64,000 nt of DNA from a virus (Duplodnaviria > Caudoviricetes). The stretch is taken from positions 23,074 through 87,073 of the IMG/VR virus record IMGVR_UViG_3300020577_006545; one strand, written 5' to 3'. The notes below the pieces were generated by a model that was given only the letters and a program-made list of their open reading frames with translations, searched no databases and was not told the origin of the DNA. Positions 1-58,072 of the stretch are shown piece after piece. The first letter of the stretch is position 1; every line of letters starts with the position of its first letter. The translations under genes were made by a program, and so were the position numbers.

Positions 1-312
1 TTTAGAAAATTGATATCCACGAGAATTACTATATCTATTTTGATTTTTATTTTTACTTGTATTCATTCTTAAAAACGCAAAGGACATTCTGCGTTTATTT
101 ATACCGTTTGTAAATTTTGTTAATAACCAATGTGACACATAATGCTCTCTTGCAGAGAGCGTCACCAAATTTTCTTTTTTATTTGTCCCACCTAGACTTT
201 TAGGGATTATATGATGTTTTTCAAAATACTTATTTTGAAAAACATTTCTTTTAAGGGCATTATCTATAATTTTATTATACCAATTATAATATTTATTTTC
301 AATAAAATACAT
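1..312 (-). CDS. HNH homing endonuclease, truncated by the window edge (not in ORF track)
   Basis: Manual translation from ATG at 312: MYFIENKYYNWYNKII...EKHHIIPKSLGGTNKKENLVTLSAREHYVSHWLLTKF; same HHIIP...GG...NLV.L.AREH motif as ORF 57347. Confidence 0.85.
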   Translation of the reverse strand, partial: MYFIENKYYNWYNKIIDNALKRNVFQNKYFEKHHIIPKSLGGTNKKENLVTLSAREHYVSHWLLTKFTNGINKRRMSFAFLRMNTSKNKNQNRYSNSRGYQFSK

Positions 313-338
313 TGTAATAATATCTTGTGTAAAAATTA

Positions 339-386
339 AAATTTTGCCTAGTTAAAGTTCTTTATTGAATTCTCTAGGCAAAATTT
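339..386. repeat. 13-bp perfect inverted repeat AAATTTTGCCTAG/CTAGGCAAAATTT; possible terminator or processing hairpin after the Ro60 operon
   Basis: Arms at 339-351 and 374-386, overlapping the end of ORF 352-507. Confidence 0.55.
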
Positions 387-507
387 CCCACCCGTCATTG
401 AACTTACAAAGAGGGCAATTTTCTTCTTGTTGCCACTCTTCGTAAGTGTAGTGATGGTCGCATTCTGGACAGACCAGAGTTTTTGTATCTCTAATCTTAT
501 CCGTCAT
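352..507 (-). CDS. 51-aa zinc-ribbon protein (not in ORF track)
   Basis: MTDKIRDTKTLVCPECDHHYTYEEWQQEENCPLCKFNDGWEILPREFNKEL; two CxxC pairs; ATG 1 nt after the Ro60 stop. Confidence 0.65.
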   Translation of the reverse strand: MTDKIRDTKTLVCPECDHHYTYEEWQQEENCPLCKFNDGWEILPREFNKEL

Positions 508-508
508 A

Positions 509-1975
509 CTAAATCTCTACTTGATGAACTGCATTCAACAGTGCTTCTTTGTCTTGCTCAAGAAGTTTCATTACATCAAAAATCTTTTCACTGAAACCAG
601 CAAGTGCGAACACTTTGTTTTCAGGAAATTGAAGACTTCCATAACCTTGCAAGTCAAAACTATAGATGTAAGGGTCGCTTCCAACCGATTTCTTATAGTT
701 CTGGAAAGATGCATCTGGTCTGTTACTTCTGTAACCACCTGTCACCCACGCTTGCATGTCTGACAAGACAATAATTCTGTCAAACTTCAATTTCTTTTCT
801 GTAATCTTATCAAAGATACAGTTGAAGTTCGTTCCCCCACCGTGAAAACCAATTGCGTCTACAATTGATTTGAGGCTGTTGCCAGCGTCAATTCTTTTGA
901 TAGTTGCACTGTCGTCAAATGTTAGAACAACAGAAGTATCTGGATTTCTCTTGTGAATAGCGGCGGCAAATAGAGAACCAATTTCACTTGGCTTTCCACT
1001 CATTGAACCTGAAACATCAAGAGCGATTAAAGTTTCACCTTCAAGTTCTGGAACATTGTTCACAGAAATATCAAGTGCTTTACTCAATGCGTTCAAAACT
1101 TTTTTTGAAAGTTTCACATCTGCATCATAAACTTTTTCAATCTCTTTGATTGCTGTCATAAATCTAAATGGTAGAATTAAGGATTTCTTAATTGCTACTT
1201 CATTAGTTAATTGACGGCAAGCCTCATCAACCATTTCTGGTGCTTGAGTAATTATGTTTCTCAGGTTTCTAAGAAGAGCGAATATACCAAGTTTTTTAGT
1301 CTCAAGCAATTCTTTCCAAGCCTTACCTTTCAGTTCGGCTACTTCTTCTTCACCTTCTGCTTTACCAGCCTCACTCAACATTGCTTCCCAAGTATCAACA
1401 TTCTTGAGTTTTCCAGACATTAAGTCTTTGAACACTTGAACATTTTTTTCACTTGGCTTTGGGTGAATGAGGTTGAAAGCATCAACCATTCCAAGTTCTT
1501 TTCCAGAACCAGCGTATTTAGCAAGTTGATAACCATCAAACTTGTTCAACGCTCTTGCCAAACCATCTTTCAATGAATTTGGAAGTGGCTTACCATACTT
1601 ATTCATGTAATAAGCGAGAATTTCAGTAATATCGTCTGCACGATACACAACCTTTTCATAGAAAGGTCTTGTCCATTGCTCACCTTTTACTTGTTTTGCA
1701 ATCTCACCTGCTACTGCGTGTGTGATTGAGCGCATACCAAACTGTGTTCTTGCAAACACTGCGGCCTTTGCCGCAAATTTCTTGTCTTTCAACTGTGAAA
1801 TTAGTTGTGAAACTTTCTCAAGAGTTTCGTTAGAACCTCTATAAAATTGTTCACCTGCGAATGAAGTCAAGAGAATAGAAATTAATTCCAACTCTGCACT
1901 TTCTTGATGCGCGTCGCCACCAGCATAGTTTTGTATTGCTGGTGCCTTTTGTCTCGTTTTGTTAAACTTTGACAT
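509..1975 (-). CDS. rsr: Ro60/TROVE-domain RNA-binding protein with C-terminal vWA domain
   Basis: N-terminal NYAGGDA, motifs GMRS, LAKY, VDTWE, ALLRNLRN; MIDAS-like DVSGSM and IIVLSDMQ; GGAGGT Shine-Dalgarno. Confidence 0.93.
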   Translation of the reverse strand: MSKFNKTRQKAPAIQNYAGGDAHQESAELELISILLTSFAGEQFYRGSNETLEKVSQLISQLKDKKFAAKAAVFARTQFGMRSITHAVAGEIAKQVKGEQWTRPFYEKVVYRADDITEILAYYMNKYGKPLPNSLKDGLARALNKFDGYQLAKYAGSGKELGMVDAFNLIHPKPSEKNVQVFKDLMSGKLKNVDTWEAMLSEAGKAEGEEEVAELKGKAWKELLETKKLGIFALLRNLRNIITQAPEMVDEACRQLTNEVAIKKSLILPFRFMTAIKEIEKVYDADVKLSKKVLNALSKALDISVNNVPELEGETLIALDVSGSMSGKPSEIGSLFAAAIHKRNPDTSVVLTFDDSATIKRIDAGNSLKSIVDAIGFHGGGTNFNCIFDKITEKKLKFDRIIVLSDMQAWVTGGYRSNRPDASFQNYKKSVGSDPYIYSFDLQGYGSLQFPENKVFALAGFSEKIFDVMKLLEQDKEALLNAVHQVEI

Positions 1976-2022
1976 ATCTTACCTCCAGTTCCCTTTCGGG
2001 ACAAATTAGAACAAATAATAAT

Positions 2023-2086
2023 GTGGAGAAAACCAAGAAGGGGGTTTTTCTATTAATGGTTGAAGTATCCCTTCTTTCACTACCAC
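2023..2086 (-). ncRNA. Y-RNA-like unit 1 (short, minimal insert)
   Basis: Transcript GUGGUAGUGAAAGAAGGGAUACUUC...GAAAAACCCCCUUCUUGGUUUUCUCCAC; terminal stem plus internal stem; directly upstream of Ro60. Confidence 0.7.
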
Positions 2087-2103
2087 TTTTATTAGTGCAA
2101 AAT

Positions 2104-2194
2104 ACGGAGAAAATCTATAAGAGAATTTTTTAAGGAGTTGAACCTTAAACCATTATGAGTGGTTTAACCGAAGTATCTCTTATATTACTGCCGT
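2104..2194 (-). ncRNA. Y-RNA-like unit 2 with anticodon-arm-like (loop CUCAUAA) and T-arm-like inserts
   Basis: Same scaffold; insert UUAAACCA-CUCAUAA-UGGUUUAA then AAGG-UUCAACU-CCUU. Confidence 0.72.
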
Positions 2195-2220
2195 TTTATT
2201 TAGTACATTCACAAACTAAT

Positions 2221-2347
2221 GCGGAGAAAATTGTAAAGGAAATTTTTTAGGCGCTCTACCAACTGAGCTACATACCTTTCGGTATGACAGGACTTGAACC
2301 TGCGACTTCCCGCTTAATAGGCGATGAAATCCTTTACTTACTACCGT
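2221..2347 (-). ncRNA. yrlA: YrlA-like Y RNA containing a circularly permuted tRNA module
   Basis: Order on transcript: CGC-CUAUUAA-GCG, variable GAAGUC, T arm CAGG-UUCAAGU-CCUG, acceptor-like stem CAUACC-GAAA-GGUAUG, D arm GCUC-AGUUGGUA-GAGC, all enclosed by the shared scaffold. Confidence 0.85.
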
Positions 2348-2360
2348 CTTTAATTAGTGC

Positions 2361-2430
2361 ATTGCGAAGAAAAACGAGAAGAGAGTTTTTTTTCACCAAA
2401 TTGAAGTAACCCTTCTCTTACTGTCGCAAT
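2361..2430 (-). ncRNA. Y-RNA-like unit 4 (first transcribed, minimal insert)
   Basis: 7-bp terminal stem AUUGCGA/UCGCAAU, CAGUAA bulge, GAGAAGGG/CUCUCUUCUC stem, UACUUC motif. Confidence 0.7.
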
Positions 2431-2434
2431 TATT

Positions 2435-2463
2435 ATCTTACCCCATATGTAAGAATGCGTCAA
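2435..2463 (-). promoter_or_regulatory. sigma70-type promoter for the Y RNA array and Ro60
   Basis: TTGACG-17 nt-TAAGAT on the minus strand; predicted start site at about the 5' end of unit 4. Confidence 0.75.
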
Positions 2464-2598
2464 ATGAAATTTAATTTTTTTTATTTTTTTCTTTTAATTA
2501 AGGAAAATGCACATCACTTGACGAGAAATCAAAAAGCCCTTATAATTGAACCCGTCAGGGTGATAAGGAACAAGTGTACTGTACAGTACAGGAAAACT

Positions 2599-2835
2599 AT
2601 GAGCGAAAAACAGTTTAAAATAGGCGACAAAGTAATTGTGATAGGCAAATATGAAGCAGATAACTTTTGGGTTGGTGATATAGAACAAATAGATGAAAAT
2701 CAAATTTATATAAAAGTTGGAAATCAAGGATTGGGAGTTGATATAAATGATTTAGAACATTATGATAAGAATATCAATTGGGTAGAGTTTTATAAAAATA
2801 AATACCCTCACCCAGAATTCTGGGAAGGAGATTGA
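2599..2835 (+). CDS. hypothetical protein (likely start 2599 rather than 2455)
   Basis: AGGA SD before ATG 2599; FKIGDKVIVIG SH3/KOW-like start. Confidence 0.5.
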   Translation: MSEKQFKIGDKVIVIGKYEADNFWVGDIEQIDENQIYIKVGNQGLGVDINDLEHYDKNINWVEFYKNKYPHPEFWEGD

Positions 2836-2836
2836 A

Positions 2837-3142
2837 ATGAGTTTTGAAGAAAGAAAAATAATAAAATATGGAATTAAATTTTCTATAGATGTAACTGATA
2901 TGTCTATAGATGAGGATGGCACTCCTACAGCAAACATTGCTCTTAAAAAAGAGCAAATACCTATTTTATATATTACACCAAAACATCAAGAAGAAGTTCA
3001 TTTCATTAGAATGCAGTTAAAAGCGATTGCTGAAATGACCTGTGAAGGTAAAAAAGCACATAGAAAATATGAATTAGAATTGATGGATAGGTTAGCGGAG
3101 ATTACAGACACTATGTTTAATAAAAGAAAAGACTTGCAATAA
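2837..3142 (+). CDS. hypothetical protein
   Basis: ORF with GGAG SD, coupled to the upstream ORF. Confidence 0.5.
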   Translation: MSFEERKIIKYGIKFSIDVTDMSIDEDGTPTANIALKKEQIPILYITPKHQEEVHFIRMQLKAIAEMTCEGKKAHRKYELELMDRLAEITDTMFNKRKDLQ

Positions 3143-3162
3143 TTAAAACAATCATTTATAAT
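3134..3162 (+). promoter_or_regulatory. sigma70-type promoter, predicted leaderless primase mRNA
   Basis: TTGCAA-17-TATAAT, 7 nt before ATG 3170. Confidence 0.75.
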
Positions 3163-3169
3163 TTCCTTT

Positions 3170-4186
3170 ATGGGAATTGCTTGGGACAGAATTGTTGTTG
3201 AAAATGCACTCCAAGAAATTCTTGGCGAGCCGAAGATTTCTAAAAACGGTAAAGAATGGCAATATAACTCACATTACACAAGTGATAATAAAAGAAAACT
3301 TTATGTTAATGTGGAAAAGCACGGCGTATTCAACGATTTCAAATCAGGCGAAAAAGGTTCGTTTGAAAGATTGATCGCAGATTACAATGGCTGGTCAGAG
3401 GATGAAGCAATCCGTCATCTTATAGCAAATTTCGCCTCTAAAATGAATGGTGTAACAATGATTGGCACCACTATAAAGAAAAAAGACCCTGTTGTAAAAA
3501 ATGGTAATTTACCAGAACATTCCTACAAAATAAAACATAACGATAAGTATTCTCTTCCTTATATTAAGTATTTGCAGAGCAGAGGAATGCCAGATAGTTT
3601 CATCTATAATTGTTATTATTCTATTGCTAAAGTGATGAATGGCAAACCATTTGAAATGAAAAATTATGTAATTATTCCGTATCTTGATGAGTTTGATAAA
3701 GTGATTTATTGGACTGGAAGATGTATATATGAAAACAAACGGCCAAAATATTACAATTGTCCAGAAGCAGATGCATCACACTTTGTTTACAATGTGTTCA
3801 CTGATGTACTTGAAGTTGTTATCACAGAGGGTGTTCTTGATGCTATCAAGTTTGGTAAAAATGGTATAGCAACTGGTGGTAAATCAGTAAGTGATTTTCA
3901 AATTGACGCTATAGTGGCAAGAAATTTTAAGAGAATTATTCTTGTTCCAGACAATGAAGAATATGAGAAAGGACCAAAAGCAACTATTGAATTATTCAAA
4001 AAATTAAGAGAGCGTGGACAAAATGTATTCATCTTTAATTGGATTTCTTATGGTAAGAAGATTAGATTAAAAGTGAAAGACTTCGCTTCATTTACTGAGA
4101 TAGAACATTTTAAGGTTAAAGACCTTGAGAAACATTTGATTGATAATGATTTTGAAGCACAAACAATTTATATGGTGAGGGACTAA
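3170..4186 (+). CDS. DNA primase (Toprim, phage DnaG/gp61-like)
   Basis: YLQSRG, IIPY, WTGR, TEGVLDA and PDN Toprim motifs; N-terminal Zn-binding-like domain lacks cysteines. Confidence 0.85.
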   Translation: MGIAWDRIVVENALQEILGEPKISKNGKEWQYNSHYTSDNKRKLYVNVEKHGVFNDFKSGEKGSFERLIADYNGWSEDEAIRHLIANFASKMNGVTMIGTTIKKKDPVVKNGNLPEHSYKIKHNDKYSLPYIKYLQSRGMPDSFIYNCYYSIAKVMNGKPFEMKNYVIIPYLDEFDKVIYWTGRCIYENKRPKYYNCPEADASHFVYNVFTDVLEVVITEGVLDAIKFGKNGIATGGKSVSDFQIDAIVARNFKRIILVPDNEEYEKGPKATIELFKKLRERGQNVFIFNWISYGKKIRLKVKDFASFTEIEHFKVKDLEKHLIDNDFEAQTIYMVRD

Positions 4187-4188
4187 TT

Positions 4189-4407
4189 ATGATGCCGTGT
4201 TGCGATTTATGTTACAAAAAGTATTTAGAAGAAGATGGAAGTCTTGATGAGAAAGCATATCAAGACGCACTTGGAGAATTTGCTGTGTGGCTCTCTGAGC
4301 AAAGAAAAACAAAGAAAACTGTTGGATTTGACACAAGACTTGATGAAGCGAAGAATAGGAAGTGCAGATGTGCTTGTCATGTTAAGGGGAGAAATATTCT
4401 GCATTAA
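4189..4407 (+). CDS. small Cys-rich hypothetical protein
   Basis: CCDLC and CRCACH. Confidence 0.45.
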   Translation: MMPCCDLCYKKYLEEDGSLDEKAYQDALGEFAVWLSEQRKTKKTVGFDTRLDEAKNRKCRCACHVKGRNILH

Positions 4408-4589
4408 GGAGTAAATATGAAAATTACATTAACACATCAAGAAATTCAAGAAGCGTGTATTAGTTGGTTGAATGAAAAGAAAATTAATTTACCAAAAGAT
4501 GCTGTAGTTGATTTTACTGATACTAACTACGACGATAGAAAAGTTGAATACGGGTATTTGATTGCGTCTGTTGATACGGATTTGTAAAA

Positions 4590-4979
4590 ATGAAATTAAT
4601 ACAAAAAATTTTATATAAAAGAAAGAAATGGTATGTTAAGAGAAATCGTTATAAAAGAAAACGCAGGATGTCGTTTAGAGAAATAAAAGTGTTGTGGGAT
4701 AAAATCAATAATACGCAATATAATAATGACGAATACTATTATGGACTTAGAAGTGTGTCGGATATTCTAACACAAATTCTTATTTCAAATCAAAAAAGTT
4801 TTCGTATATATTATTTTGATGATAATGATGTTTTTGATATGATTAAGATTATAGAAACAGTTAGAAATAGAGATGTATTAAGAAAAACGCTTACTGGTGG
4901 TATGATTTGCTTTAAATTCATTAGTGATTTAAGAATCACTAATAGTGAATTGTATTTGAAATACAGGCTTTTATTATAA
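4590..4979 (+). CDS. YEKYKLL-family protein
   Basis: Ends SELYLKYRLLL. Confidence 0.65.
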   Translation: MKLIQKILYKRKKWYVKRNRYKRKRRMSFREIKVLWDKINNTQYNNDEYYYGLRSVSDILTQILISNQKSFRIYYFDDNDVFDMIKIIETVRNRDVLRKTLTGGMICFKFISDLRITNSELYLKYRLLL

Positions 4980-5356
4980 TGGTAAATCATAAAATTTTAA
5001 AAATAAAAGGAACGGAGAACTCATTTATTCTTTCATCTGATGACACTAATACAATAAAAGTATTAATAAATAATGCTAATGATATTGCACTTGTTATTAC
5101 AGATATGATGAAACGGTTTGAAGAAAGTAGATTTCAAACTGAAATTTTGGGGTTTAAGGCAGATGCAGATGGAGTAGTGAAGTTTACTATGGAGTTTACG
5201 ATAGGAGAGACATTTGGAGAAATGACAGAAGACAAATTTCTTGAGTATTTGAATATCTATAGTGATGTTAAATATAAAAATTTTGTAAGAGCAATTAGAA
5301 ATGCATCTGTGCAATTTGATAAAATGTGCGAGAAATATAAACTATTAATTGAGTGA
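4979..5356 (+). CDS. YEKYKLL-family protein
   Basis: MTEDKFLEYL ... MCEKYKLLIE. Confidence 0.65.
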   Translation: MVNHKILKIKGTENSFILSSDDTNTIKVLINNANDIALVITDMMKRFEESRFQTEILGFKADADGVVKFTMEFTIGETFGEMTEDKFLEYLNIYSDVKYKNFVRAIRNASVQFDKMCEKYKLLIE

Positions 5357-5735
5357 AATTATGATTAAAGGAATGACTATAAGAACTTTTAACGAACTTG
5401 AAAAAGTTGTAAAATCATATTCTTCATTTTATGGGGAAGATGTTGATTTTAGAGTTGAAGAAATAGGAATTGGACATATTGAATTAACTTTCATTTTTTA
5501 TGAATTTAAGAGTGTTGAACTAATTAAAGAAGTGATGAAGGCAGTTAAACCTAACATAGTTATTAGTGTTAGATGTGATTGGCGTTTGTTTTTAGTTGCA
5601 ACAGATTTTACAGAAGAAGATTTTATACAATTTCTTACTGAAGAAAAACCAGATGAATGGGTGTTAAAATCAATTGCAGAAAATAATAAAAGAGTTGCTC
5701 TTTTGTGTGAAAAGTATAAACTATTAGTGGGGTAA
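5349..5735 (+). CDS. YEKYKLL-family protein
   Basis: FTEEDFIQFL ... LCEKYKLLVG. Confidence 0.65.
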   Translation: MSEIMIKGMTIRTFNELEKVVKSYSSFYGEDVDFRVEEIGIGHIELTFIFYEFKSVELIKEVMKAVKPNIVISVRCDWRLFLVATDFTEEDFIQFLTEEKPDEWVLKSIAENNKRVALLCEKYKLLVG

Positions 5736-5738
5736 AAT

Positions 5739-6005
5739 ATGAAAAAAATAATTTTAGTAATAATTCTATTAACATCTTGTGGTCTACCAAAACCAGATTG
5801 TACTAAGATTGGTGATAGTTATGACGATGTTGTTAAGAACTGTGGTAGACCGGATAAAATTGAATATAGAAATAGGTATGTTTCTTTCATAAATTATTAT
5901 GAAGGAGTATATTATTTAACAATTGGTTTTGATAGAGACATTGTAAATCAAATTCGTTATGATAATGGTAAAACAAAAACTGTAGATTATGGTAAGGAGG
6001 AATAG
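5739..6005 (+). CDS. putative lipoprotein
   Basis: MKK plus hydrophobic stretch and lipobox LTSC. Confidence 0.55.
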   Translation: MKKIILVIILLTSCGLPKPDCTKIGDSYDDVVKNCGRPDKIEYRNRYVSFINYYEGVYYLTIGFDRDIVNQIRYDNGKTKTVDYGKEE

Positions 6006-9163: not shown

Positions 9164-10102
9164 ATGTATGTTTATGCACTTATGAATATAATAAACGGTA
9201 AATTATATGTTGGTAAGACTACTAATATTGTAGCAAGGTTAAGAGTGCATAAACATAATGGTAAAAACAAGTCTAAACATAAATTAAATATTTATTTATA
9301 TAACGCAATTCATAAATATGGGTGGGAAAATTTTAATTTTTGTATCCTTTCCGAATGTAAATCTGATAATGAATTATCTAAAAAAGAATTATTTTGGATT
9401 GATTATTTCTCATCATCCGATAGGAGTTTTGGATATAATATAGTCAAAAGCGATAGTGGGTTTTACAGACACTCTGCTGAAACAAAAAATAAAATAAGTA
9501 AAATAAACAAAGGTAGAAAACGTACAAAAGAACAATGTGATAAAAACAAATTATTGCAAAAAAATATATGGGATAATCTTTCTTCTTCAGAAAAAATGGA
9601 AAGGCAAATTAAGGCGTATGCTGGTAAAAAAATAAAAGTTAGAAAATTTTATATAAAAAAAATACATAGGATAAGACAATTTTTAAAACTTTTAAGTAAA
9701 GACGAAATCAAAATGATAGGCGGTGTTAAAAGAATAATTGCGTGGAGAAATGGAAATAAAAATCCATTTAGTAAAAATGAAGTATCACTTTTAATATCAA
9801 AATTAAAAAAAGGTAAACCATTGAAAATAAATACAAAAGAAAAAATAAGAAAGAAAATACTTGGCTCAAAAAGACCAAAACAAATGGTTCAAGTCTTAGA
9901 GTACGATAAAAATATGAATGTTATTAACAGTTATAGTTCTATAACAGAAGCAAGTCTTATGACTGGATGTTCCTCTTCAAAAATATGTGATGTGTGCAAA
10001 GGGAATAGAAAATCAACTAAGGGGAAAATATTTGGCTATGGAGATGGAGATGGAAAACCACGCTTTCCAGTAGTTCTTGGTATAAGGGAGATTGACAAAT
10101 GA
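9164..10102 (+). mobile_element. free-standing GIY-YIG homing endonuclease (NUMOD3/NUMOD1-like), fused to a relic ligase C-terminus
   Basis: YVY...LYVGKT, RLRVH, KELFWI; HSAETKNKISK; ends GDGKPRFPVVLGIREIDK. Confidence 0.88.
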
Positions 10103-29074: not shown

Positions 29075-29233
29075 ATGAGTAAAACAGATAAAACTGAAAT
29101 GATTAGAATAAATGTAGATATAGAAAAAAACAAACATAAGAGATTGAAATTGATATTGGTACAAAATGATAAATCAATTAAAGATTTTCTGCATGAAGCA
29201 GTAGAAAAATATTTATTAGAAAATGATGGCTGA
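29075..29233 (+). CDS. 52-aa ribbon-helix-helix (ParG/omega-like) protein (not in ORF track)
   Basis: MSKTDKTEMIRINVDIEKNKHKRLKLILVQNDKSIKDFLHEAVEKYLLENDG; overlaps the HNH start. Confidence 0.72.
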   Translation: MSKTDKTEMIRINVDIEKNKHKRLKLILVQNDKSIKDFLHEAVEKYLLENDG

Positions 29234-30038
29234 GTATAATACAACTATGAAAGAGTGTAGTAAATGTACGATTAAAAAAACATTTAATAATTTTTATAAT
29301 GATAAATCACATAATGACGGTTATATGTCTGTCTGTAAAGAATGTATTAAAAAAAATAAAAACAAAAGAACGAAAGAAAGAACTGCGATAAGATTGACGC
29401 TACAACCTGTAGTGCAGAAAATTTGTTCTACTTGCAAAATTAAAAAGCAAATTCTCCATTTTTATAAACTGGCATCTACAGTGGACGGGTATAACACCGA
29501 ATGCAAACAGTGTTCTAATAACAGAAGTAAAAAAATAATTATAAGGTTGGCAAATAATGGACCATCTATTATTAGGTTTGAAAAAATATGTTATAAATGT
29601 AAAGTTAAAAAACATATTAGCTCTTTCACAAAAAATAGATGCAGACCAGATGGATACCACACTAAATGTAAACAATGCAAATATTCAGAACAAAAAAAAG
29701 ATTTAAGAGAAAATTTACGAAATGCTGTGTACAAAGCAATAACTCAATATTCAGAGCGTGGTAAAGTTAAAACAATACTTGAATATGGTATAGATATAAA
29801 AAAAATTATTGATTATATTGGCGAAAGACCGTCAAAAGATCATCATCTTGACCATATAATACCTATTAGTGCTTTTAATTATAATTTAGATTGGCAAATC
29901 GCAGCTTCTTGGCATCCACAAAATTTACAATGGTTGTTAGCTGAACAAAATCTTAGTAAGCATAACAAATATGAGCAGGAAGAACTTTCATTATATTTAG
30001 AAAATTTTAAAATTCCCAGCAAACGAAGAAGAACTTAA
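29223..30038 (+). mobile_element. HNH endonuclease with repeated CxxC modules
   Basis: Three C..C...K...F repeats; HLDHIIPISAF...WHPQNLQWL.AEQNLSK. Confidence 0.88.
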
Positions 30039-57082: not shown

Positions 57083-57350
57083 AATAATAAAAGAATATGC
57101 TTATAAAAACTTAACAGAAGAAGAGAAGATTGGTTTAATTGGAGATTACAATAATCTTGGTGATATGTTTTCTTCTGGAATTTCTGTTCAAGTAGACTTT
57201 TCAGAAAATAGATTTATGGTCATTGACTTAATTGAATATATGAATGACAATGATAGTCAATTTTATGAAAAGTATAAATTACTATTTCAAGAAAGAGGAT
57301 TTGTTTTTAATATGGATTGTATAATTATTGACGACAAAGGAGTTAAATGA
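57075..57350 (+). CDS. YEKYKLL-family protein
   Basis: LTEEEKIGLI ... SQFYEKYKLLFQ. Confidence 0.65.
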   Translation: MNKIIKEYAYKNLTEEEKIGLIGDYNNLGDMFSSGISVQVDFSENRFMVIDLIEYMNDNDSQFYEKYKLLFQERGFVFNMDCIIIDDKGVK

Positions 57351-58072
57351 AAAAAACTAAAAACAAATACAGTAACTGGTATTTCAAAATTATTGAAAAT
57401 GCTGTTAGTAAAAACAGAAAGAAAGGTGTTGAGTATTATGAACAACACCATATTATTCCAAGAAGTATTGGTGGAAACAATAGTAAAGAAAATTTAGTGT
57501 TATTGACAGCAAGAGAACATTATATTTGCCATTGGTTGTTAGTGAAATTTACTGATGGAAATGATAAGAAAAATATGACATACGCTTTTAGAGGTATGAA
57601 CAATCAAAAAAATAAACATCAAAAAAGATATGTAAATTCTTATGGTTATGAATATAGTAGAAATGAATTTAATAAGATTAACACTGGAAAAGCACACGCA
57701 AGTTTTGGTAAAAAGACACCAATTGAGAAGAGAAAAGAGCAAAGTGAAAGATTGAAGGGAAATAAAAATCCTTTTTATGGTAAAAGACATAGTGAAGAAA
57801 CTAAAAAGAAAATAAGTGAAAAAAATTCTAAACCAAGACCAAAGACAAGTGGTAAAAACAATCCGATGTATGGTAGAACGCCACATAATTACATAGATAT
57901 TCAAATAAATGAAGTGGTTAATGTTATATTAAATAATAACGAAATTAAAATGATTGAACTTAGCAAATTTTTTGATGTCGGTGAAAGTACGATGTTAAAG
58001 AAAATACACAATTTTGGGTATAAGGGTATTAATGAATTGAAACAAAAGGTAATTAATGAAAAAAACAAATGA
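57347..58072 (+). mobile_element. HNH homing endonuclease with NUMOD3 repeats
   Basis: HHIIPRSIGGNNSKENLVLLTAREH; NPFYGKRHSEETKKKISE; NPMYGR. Confidence 0.9.

Follow-up and report, generated by a model that had tools for sequence, protein, structure and literature searches.

A short leader shared by the internal units of a four-unit Y-RNA array upstream of a phage rsr gene

The analyzed stretch of 64,000 nucleotides (hereafter, the window) forms the right-hand part of a phage contig that measures 87,073 nt (31% G+C); the phage occurs in sludge and wastewater. A scan against PHROGs revealed a T4-like replication set on this contig, including a primase, a DnaB-like helicase, a UvsX-like recombinase, SSB, a ligase, and endonuclease VII, and the contig further encodes a ribonucleotide reductase, a thymidylate synthase, and many homing endonucleases. 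The rsr gene encodes a Ro60-like protein with recognizable TROVE and vWA_Ro60 domains (Table 1), the match to the latter scoring 25.3 bits, slightly below the cut-off of 27.7. This Ro60 ortholog lies directly downstream of, and on the same strand as, an array of four Y-RNA units (2427-2023, minus strand), which sits between one sigma70-like promoter and rsr. The sequence TTGACG-17-TAAGAT was the sole minus-strand promoter-like site detected in 1800-2700 by a sigma70 consensus scan, and no terminator-like sites were found by consensus scan in the same interval. Megablast of window positions 1-6000 against phage records gave no match, and the top tblastn match obtained with Rsr, 53% identical, belongs to an uncultured 635-kb phage; these searches detected no close cultured relative.

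Several features surrounding the array deserve a brief description. The hairpin GUCCCGAAAGGGAAC and the GGAGG that follows it directly before the rsr start codon (2002-1982, minus strand) are identical in the one close relative found, contig L004 (~1793-1813), although the flanks vary; the hairpin could serve to stabilize the rsr mRNA at its 5′ end once the last Y RNA has been removed. A search of viral contigs for the pattern of this hairpin plus the Shine-Dalgarno sequence gave 0 matches. A 51-aa zinc-ribbon ORF (CxxC...CxxC; 352-507, minus strand) begins 1-2 nt past the rsr stop codon, and likewise at 325-480 of L013, a fragment that carries only the 3′ end of an rsr gene with an 89% identical product. 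The sole Pfam match of this ORF is to an unrelated zinc finger and it has no PHROG; it may encode a small protein that partners with the Ro60-like one. Genes for homing and HNH endonucleases are abundant in the contig (1-312 on the minus strand, 9164-10102, 29223-30038, and 57347-58072 of the window; 1034-1822 and 2684-3385 of L294), and one of them is located immediately downstream of the rsr operon.

Table 1. Coordinates of the elements of the rsr locus in the window and of the genes interposed in the array of contig L004
Feature	Coordinates	Strand	Remarks
Promoter-like site of the array	2435..2463	-	TTGACG (2463-2458), 17 nt, TAAGAT (2440-2435); 9/12 consensus matches
Unit A (unit 4 of the sequence-only reading), Y-RNA-like	2364..2427	-	64-nt hairpin type; lacks the leader motif; ~95% identical to L004 384-444
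Leader 1, AAUGCACUAAUUAAA	2349..2363	-	8-mer at 2361-2354; occupies the entire A-to-B spacer
Unit B (unit 3), YrlA-like	2221..2348	-	tRNA-like T and D arms; RF02553, 44.8 bits
Leader 2, AAUGUACUAAAUAAA	2195..2209	-	8-mer at 2207-2200; preceded by the 11-nt unit B trailer (2220-2210)
Unit C (unit 2)	2104..2194	-	91 nt; T-arm-like hairpin AAGGUUCAACUCCUU; ortholog at L004 460-550
Leader 3, UUUGCACUAAUAAAA	2087..2101	-	8-mer at 2099-2092; precedes unit D
Unit D (unit 1)	2023..2086	-	64-nt hairpin type; has the common build
rsr 5′ UTR	1976..2022	-	one-mismatch motif copy; hairpin GUCCCGAAAGGGAAC (2002-1988); Shine-Dalgarno GGAGG (1986-1982)
rsr, Ro60-like protein, 488 aa	509..1975	-	TROVE, E 3.4e-17; vWA_Ro60, E 1.7e-5
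L004 HNH endonuclease gene	678-1289		own promoter-like site at 631-659
L004 76-codon ORF between Y-RNA units	1458-1688		

All four units share a common build, consisting of a 4-bp basal helix, a loop with YAGURA opposite UUUUCU, and a helix of 8-10 bp, and the basal helix and loop of units A, C, and D are built as in the units adjoining rsr homologs. Unit B aligned to the Rfam YrlA model (RF02553) with an E value of 1.4e-8 in a 901-nt search, its bit score (Table 1) not reaching the gathering score of 69, at which the array in the window has no match to this model; in this alignment, the segments GCAGGUUCAAGUCCUGU and GUAGCUCAGUUGGUAGAGC of the unit correspond to the T arm and the D arm of YrlA, and its score against the tRNA model was 21.6 bits. 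Unit C displays compensatory changes in the basal helix when compared with its ortholog in L004. The premise of the sequence-only reading that these are Y RNA units is thus borne out by the adjacent gene with TROVE and Ro60-type vWA domains, by the YrlA match of unit B, albeit below the gathering score, and by the common build.

To place the array among its relatives, a regular expression describing the build was run on 179 sources, namely the first 6 kb of the window and 178 loci around Rsr homologs. The search identified 172 units, distributed over 90 locus-strands; most were arranged in tandem, and almost all lay on the strand of rsr. These totals cover some contigs that are present in overlapping copies, and also one miscall in which unit B was fused with the end of unit C. 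In a consensus fold of 25 short units, 11 of the 12 pairs had changed on both sides, a figure that is partly circular because the regular expression selects for pairing. Tandem Y-RNA arrays beside rsr are ordinary, and only the leader described below is new. Other arrangements were encountered among these loci. In a Sericytochromatia chromosome (L238, 820-1960), tRNA genes are interleaved with YrlA-like units upstream of rsr, and each Y unit is preceded by one ~70-nt repeat ending in ...UUUUAACUAAUUACUUUUAACUAAAAAA, in which no sigma70-like or other promoter-like site was reported. In L135, L142, L146, L154, L163, and L220, the Y unit nearest to rsr is flanked by a long complementary leader and trailer, e.g., CCCUUGCAAAGAUAUUA ... 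UAACUUAUUUGCAAGGG, which points to a lower stem of far greater length in these relatives, or to a stalk used in processing.

The leader was first perceived as an 8-mer, TTAGT(G/A)CA, at 2092, 2200, and 2354, and these positions proved exact: on the plus strand, TTAGTRCA reads TTAGTGCA at 2092-2099, TTAGTACA at 2200-2207, and TTAGTGCA at 2354-2361, corresponding to UGCACUAA, UGUACUAA, and UGCACUAA on the transcribed minus strand (UGYACUAA). The 8-mer can be extended, being the core of a 15-nt block, WWUGYACUAAWWAAA, that directly abuts the opening base of units B, C, and D. The reported spacing of 5-6 nt upstream of units 1, 2, and 3 holds as well, with 5 nt separating the 8-mer from the basal helix of unit C (ACGG at 2194) and of unit D (GUGG at 2086), and, for unit B, 5 or 6 nt depending on whether one counts to G2348 or to ACGG at 2347. 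The leader motif is missing solely before unit A, where the promoter can set the 5′ end; this unit begins 7 nt past the −10 hexamer TAAGAT of the only promoter-like site on that strand. A one-mismatch version of the 8-mer, UGUUCUAA, follows unit D at 2013-2006 (minus strand) without the remainder of the block.

The number of 8-mers as such is ordinary, with 5 in the window on both strands compared to 5.86 ± 2.31 expected (73 of 100 shuffles contained at least 5), and outside the array 1+1 copies were found against 3.8+3.4 expected; there, it is not enriched, nor is it clearly avoided. What is unusual is the clustering of three copies on one strand within 270 nt, as well as the agreement of the surrounding block: 10 of the 15 leader columns are invariant, a value reached in 0 of 200,000 within-spacer shuffles (mean 2.16, maximum 9), and a search of the entire 87,073-nt contig, both strands included, for the 13-mer G[CT]ACTAA[AT][AT]AAA gave 3 hits, all of them within the array. 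The distance from the leader to the downstream unit is constant, whereas that from the motif to the upstream unit is 2, 13, or 4 nt. Pairwise identity among the leaders (0.67-0.87) exceeds that among the 5′ helix strands of the three units they precede (0.50-0.58), the unit helices having diverged with compensatory changes while the leaders stayed alike. It is very unlikely that the leader is a product of chance. The leaders can also be read as mini-ORFs (AUG CAC UAA, AUG UAC UAA, and UUG CAC UAA at 2362-2354, 2208-2200, and 2100-2092, minus strand), and so can those of L004 (AUG CAA UAC UAA; AUG CAA UAC AAA AAG UAG); none of these has a Shine-Dalgarno sequence, and mini-ORFs in such A/U-rich leaders are probably a coincidence.

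The only close relative that we found, L004, is a 3.3-kb metagenome contig with a 75% identical Rsr. It carries the same promoter (348-376) and unit A (384-444), followed by unit C, a 203-codon HNH endonuclease gene, unit B, a 76-codon ORF, unit D, the hairpin with the Shine-Dalgarno sequence, and rsr, with units C, B, and D orthologous to those of the window and the two interposed genes lying within 551-1300 and 1441-1707, respectively; compared with the A-B-C-D order of the window, units B and C are thus swapped. At ~597-640 lies a partial sequence (GAUAGUAGUGAGAC...) that is similar to a unit's 5′ half. The sequence-only reading had proposed looking for the motif in homologous arrays; in L004, leaders of the same build precede all three internal units: AAUGCAAUACAAAAA|G, UAAGUACUAAUAAAA|G, and AAUGCAAUACUAAAA|G, the second abutting the HNH stop codon and the third coming after the 76-codon ORF. 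The retention of leaders in front of units despite the inserted protein genes indicates that the leader belongs to the downstream unit. Consensus scans detected neither a promoter-like site directly ahead of units B or D of L004 nor a terminator on the plus strand, and these two units would consequently need to be cut from longer transcripts. When the six leaders are aligned by distance, they have in common a G at −12, an A at −10, and a U at −8 nt from the unit start, and their last seven bases are A-rich. Identity between the leaders of the window and those of L004, as counted on the alignment, is ~73-79%, which is not above that of the units, and the cross-genome evidence for conservation is accordingly weak. 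Two of the L004 leaders are 15/16 identical to each other and differ from those of the window at the same places, a likeness that could reflect concerted evolution or covariation with a shared reader.

Beyond this lineage, the outcome was different, and none of ten other distinct arrays contained a comparable shared leader. The best case, L222, had 6 of 12 columns in common (p about 0.02); the array of the window was left out of this ten-array test, the regular expression having run unit B together with unit C at the 3′ end of the latter, and the figure given above for the window comes from a separate shuffle test. Locus L133 is particularly informative, because its Rsr is 56% identical and its array has the same four-unit build (short, YrlA-like, T-arm, and short, with a score of 34.8 bits for its unit B against the YrlA model); its three spacers have 0 of 12 columns in common, although the first keeps UGCAC. 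The existence of comparable arrays without the leader implies that Y RNA release does not need it. Two further candidates for a wider distribution were rejected. The combination of the leader with a unit start (ACTAAWWAAAN{2,3}GGNAGTRA) matched at least 114 loci in viral contigs, and none of those listed precedes a Y-RNA-like unit, as expected of chance matches in A-rich DNA. The ACUAA found before the units of L238 belongs to three copies of one long repeat and, by our estimate, one such lineage per 140 leaders is at the level of chance.

This distribution raises the question of whether the leaders are functionless relics, copied along with the units during tandem duplication or homogenized by recombination and persisting by chance in an A/U-rich spacer. 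Such an origin would agree with the confinement of the motif to the lineage of the window and L004, L133 and nine other arrays having no shared leader; with the different unit order in the two genomes, which shows that the region recombines; and with the near identity of two L004 leaders, as concerted evolution would produce. However, the adjoining units are far more diverged than the leaders, and the similarity stops sharply at both edges of a block of 15-16 nt, which appears short for gene conversion. Moreover, neutral sequence would be expected neither to keep a fixed distance to the downstream unit nor to persist through two independent insertions of genes, as the leader did in L004, and we regard a relic as unlikely. 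The leader is probably under selection, yet specific to one phage lineage, and the best explanation of the observations is that a selected, lineage-specific leader of 15-16 nt marks the 5′ boundary of every internal unit.

Such a boundary mark matches the distribution of a 5′-end determinant, and both ideas put forward in the sequence-only reading, namely, a processing signal that releases individual RNAs and an internal promoter element, fit that distribution. Under the latter, the leader would be a −10-type element needing no −35, read by a phage polymerase or sigma factor or by a modified host one, and units B, C, and D would also be primary transcripts. The hexamers TGCACT, TGTACT, and TGCACT in the window and TGCAAT, AGTACT, and TGCAAT in L004 are indeed positioned 7 nt before the purine that opens the unit, the same spacing as from TAAGAT to the G of unit A, and all six leaders comply with it; the absence of the motif only at unit A, which already has a promoter, points in the same direction. 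Sigma70-type −10 elements, however, need a conserved A at the second position of the hexamer, where all six have G. There is no −35, its position falling within the pyrimidine-rich 3′ strand of the preceding unit, and the consensus scans of the window and L004 reported no site at any leader. The promoters that are visible in this phage conform to TTGACA-17-TAnAAT, and nowhere in the 87 kb does the 13-mer precede a gene, with no enrichment of the 8-mer outside the array. Given the confinement of the 13-mer to the array and the ordinary TTGACA/TAnAAT promoters elsewhere, the leader is not a general transcription signal of the phage. A sigma54 reading of UUGCA was also considered and discarded, no GG being seen by eye at −24.

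A more specific version of the promoter idea is suggested by T4, whose late promoter, TATAAATA, is an eight-letter element located ~5 nt before the start and has no −35. The 8-mer followed by 5 nt recalls this arrangement, and the phage has a T4-like replication module. The two elements are alike in length, position, and the lack of a −35, but they coincide in only 3-4 of the 8 letters, the contig yielded no gp55-like factor, and no protein gene has the motif in front of it. Nor was any sigma factor or RNA polymerase detected among 72 ORFs of this incomplete contig scanned against PHROGs. We consider an internal promoter quite unlikely. The two-part proposal is partly supported: the motif is linked to the unit downstream of it, is conserved, and is missing only where a promoter can set the 5′ end; its generality is not supported, and its fit to a sigma70 promoter is poor.

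The leader might instead be structural, i.e., the 5′ strand of a lower stem formed with the trailer of the same unit, either as a part of the mature RNA or as an RNase III-type stalk. In the minimum-energy fold, leader 1 (CAC and AAUUAA) pairs with the trailer of unit B (UUAGUU and GUG), and unit B of L004 can, as judged by eye, form a 7-bp helix with other letters (UAAUAAA with UUUAUUG). Furthermore, in a set of 140 distinct units taken from rsr loci, leader and trailer pair more strongly than shuffled sequences do (mean z −1.6, with 42% falling below −1.64), and long flanking helices do exist in some relatives, such as L135, L142, and L154. Against this, pairing in the window is at the level of chance (z −0.8 for unit B, +0.9 for C, and +0.15 for D), as it is for units B and D of L004 (z 0.0 and +0.2). 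The copies also differ in predicted accessibility: the unpaired probability is 0.58-0.83 for copy 2, which is thus predicted to be unpaired, compared to 0.01-0.31 for five of the eight bases of copy 1, which are paired with the unit B trailer, and the pairing of copy 3 is intermediate or ambiguous. Finally, the trailers differ and fail to explain why three leaders are alike, which leaves a structural strand with a small probability in our assessment.

We tentatively favor the interpretation of the leader as an RNA-level signal for 5′-end maturation of units B, C, and D, a reading of the sequences to which we assign somewhat less than an even chance. The array and rsr would be transcribed together from the single promoter, and a host or phage endoribonuclease would cut in or beside the A/U-rich leader with its invariant G. 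Exonucleases would then shorten the products as far as the helix that the Ro60-like protein holds, which would yield single Y RNAs together with an rsr mRNA whose new 5′ end would bear the conserved hairpin. Here, we infer the single transcript, its cutting, and the identity of the enzyme. In favor of this route are the excess conservation and fixed position of the leader, its uniqueness within the contig, the lone promoter and the lack of terminator-like sites in 1800-2700, the two L004 units that would have to be excised from transcripts with protein genes, and the precedent of YrlA and YrlB in Mycobacterium smegmatis. Counted against the maturation signal are the absence of the leader from the distant arrays, the uneven predicted accessibility of its copies, and the lack of a known nuclease consensus that fits.

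Polycistronic tRNA and rRNA operons illustrate how such a route could operate: their stable RNAs are separated by RNase E, P, Z, or III in short A/U-rich spacers or stems and trimmed by exonucleases. The proposed route resembles these operons in that several structured RNAs would be obtained from one transcript with short A/U-rich spacers. The spacers of tRNA and rRNA operons are generally devoid of a shared 15-nt sequence, recognition being mostly structural. With respect to nucleases that do respond to sequence, the available part of a study on Bacillus subtilis describes RNase Y as preferring A/U-rich unstructured RNA with a G directly before the cut and the MazF-type EndoA as recognizing the strict six-letter word U/ACAUA (bioRxiv 10.1101/2023.03.12.532304). 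The leaders, too, are rich in A and U and combine a fixed word with a single invariant G, although these rules come from B. subtilis, which is perhaps not the host of the phage. The EndoA word is unmatched, the leaders having UACUAA or CACUAA in its place, and the RNase Y consensus is too weak for comparison with the leaders.

A stricter variant of maturation would make the leader the word of one sequence-specific endoribonuclease, either encoded by the phage or supplied by the host as a MazF-type enzyme, that dices the Y-RNA operon in a manner similar to the reading of CRISPR repeats by Cas6, with the word and the enzyme changing together between lineages. The words would then be UGCACUAAU in the window and UGCAAUACU in L004. 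This variant we consider very unlikely.

Sequencing data covering the locus were also inspected. Twenty sequencing entries contain at least part of the region; five of them are recorded as RNA, and the four containing 97-99% of its words were mapped on window positions 1000-4000. The depth in the four "metatranscriptome" runs was flat over rsr, the array, and their neighbors (240, 156, and 253 for X4), and their contigs reached up to 105 kb. Flat depth together with long contigs indicates that these "RNA" runs behave as phage DNA. In one run, a contig variant diverges upstream of 2422, inside the 5′ end of unit A. Another variant diverges before 2510, and two alleles with four linked substitutions were seen at 1844-1897, in the 5′ end of rsr.

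Bacterial Y RNAs resemble the array described here in being small RNAs located beside or upstream of a Ro60 ortholog on the same strand (the Salmonella rsr-yrlBA-rtcBA locus, Mycobacterium smegmatis, and RF02553), as far as the portions of the sources at hand describe them, and in that one of the RNAs has a domain resembling tRNA. For M. smegmatis, the part of the report at hand states that YrlA and YrlB, which lie upstream of rsr, are "processed from a single precursor" (PMC4201824). The accessible portions of this literature describe no release signal or conserved spacer for bacterial Y RNAs, and the array considered here differs in having four units behind one promoter in a phage. The Thermus phage phiLo encodes a Ro60 homolog with the Y-RNA-like genes Yrl1 and Yrl2 directly upstream, and the available part of its description reports no shared leader (PMC12135203); it has two RNAs compared to four here, and its Ro60 is 25.5% identical to that of the window. 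The literature searched, represented by parts of the sources, contained no description of the release of bacterial or phage Y RNAs from precursors.

If the leader proves to be a relic or one strand of a stem, it would be no more than a small detail in a Ro60/Y-RNA locus that is ordinary in other respects. As a short and fixed sequence, it offers a concrete, mutable handle on Y RNA release in a phage system, and it could show which nuclease the phage relies on.
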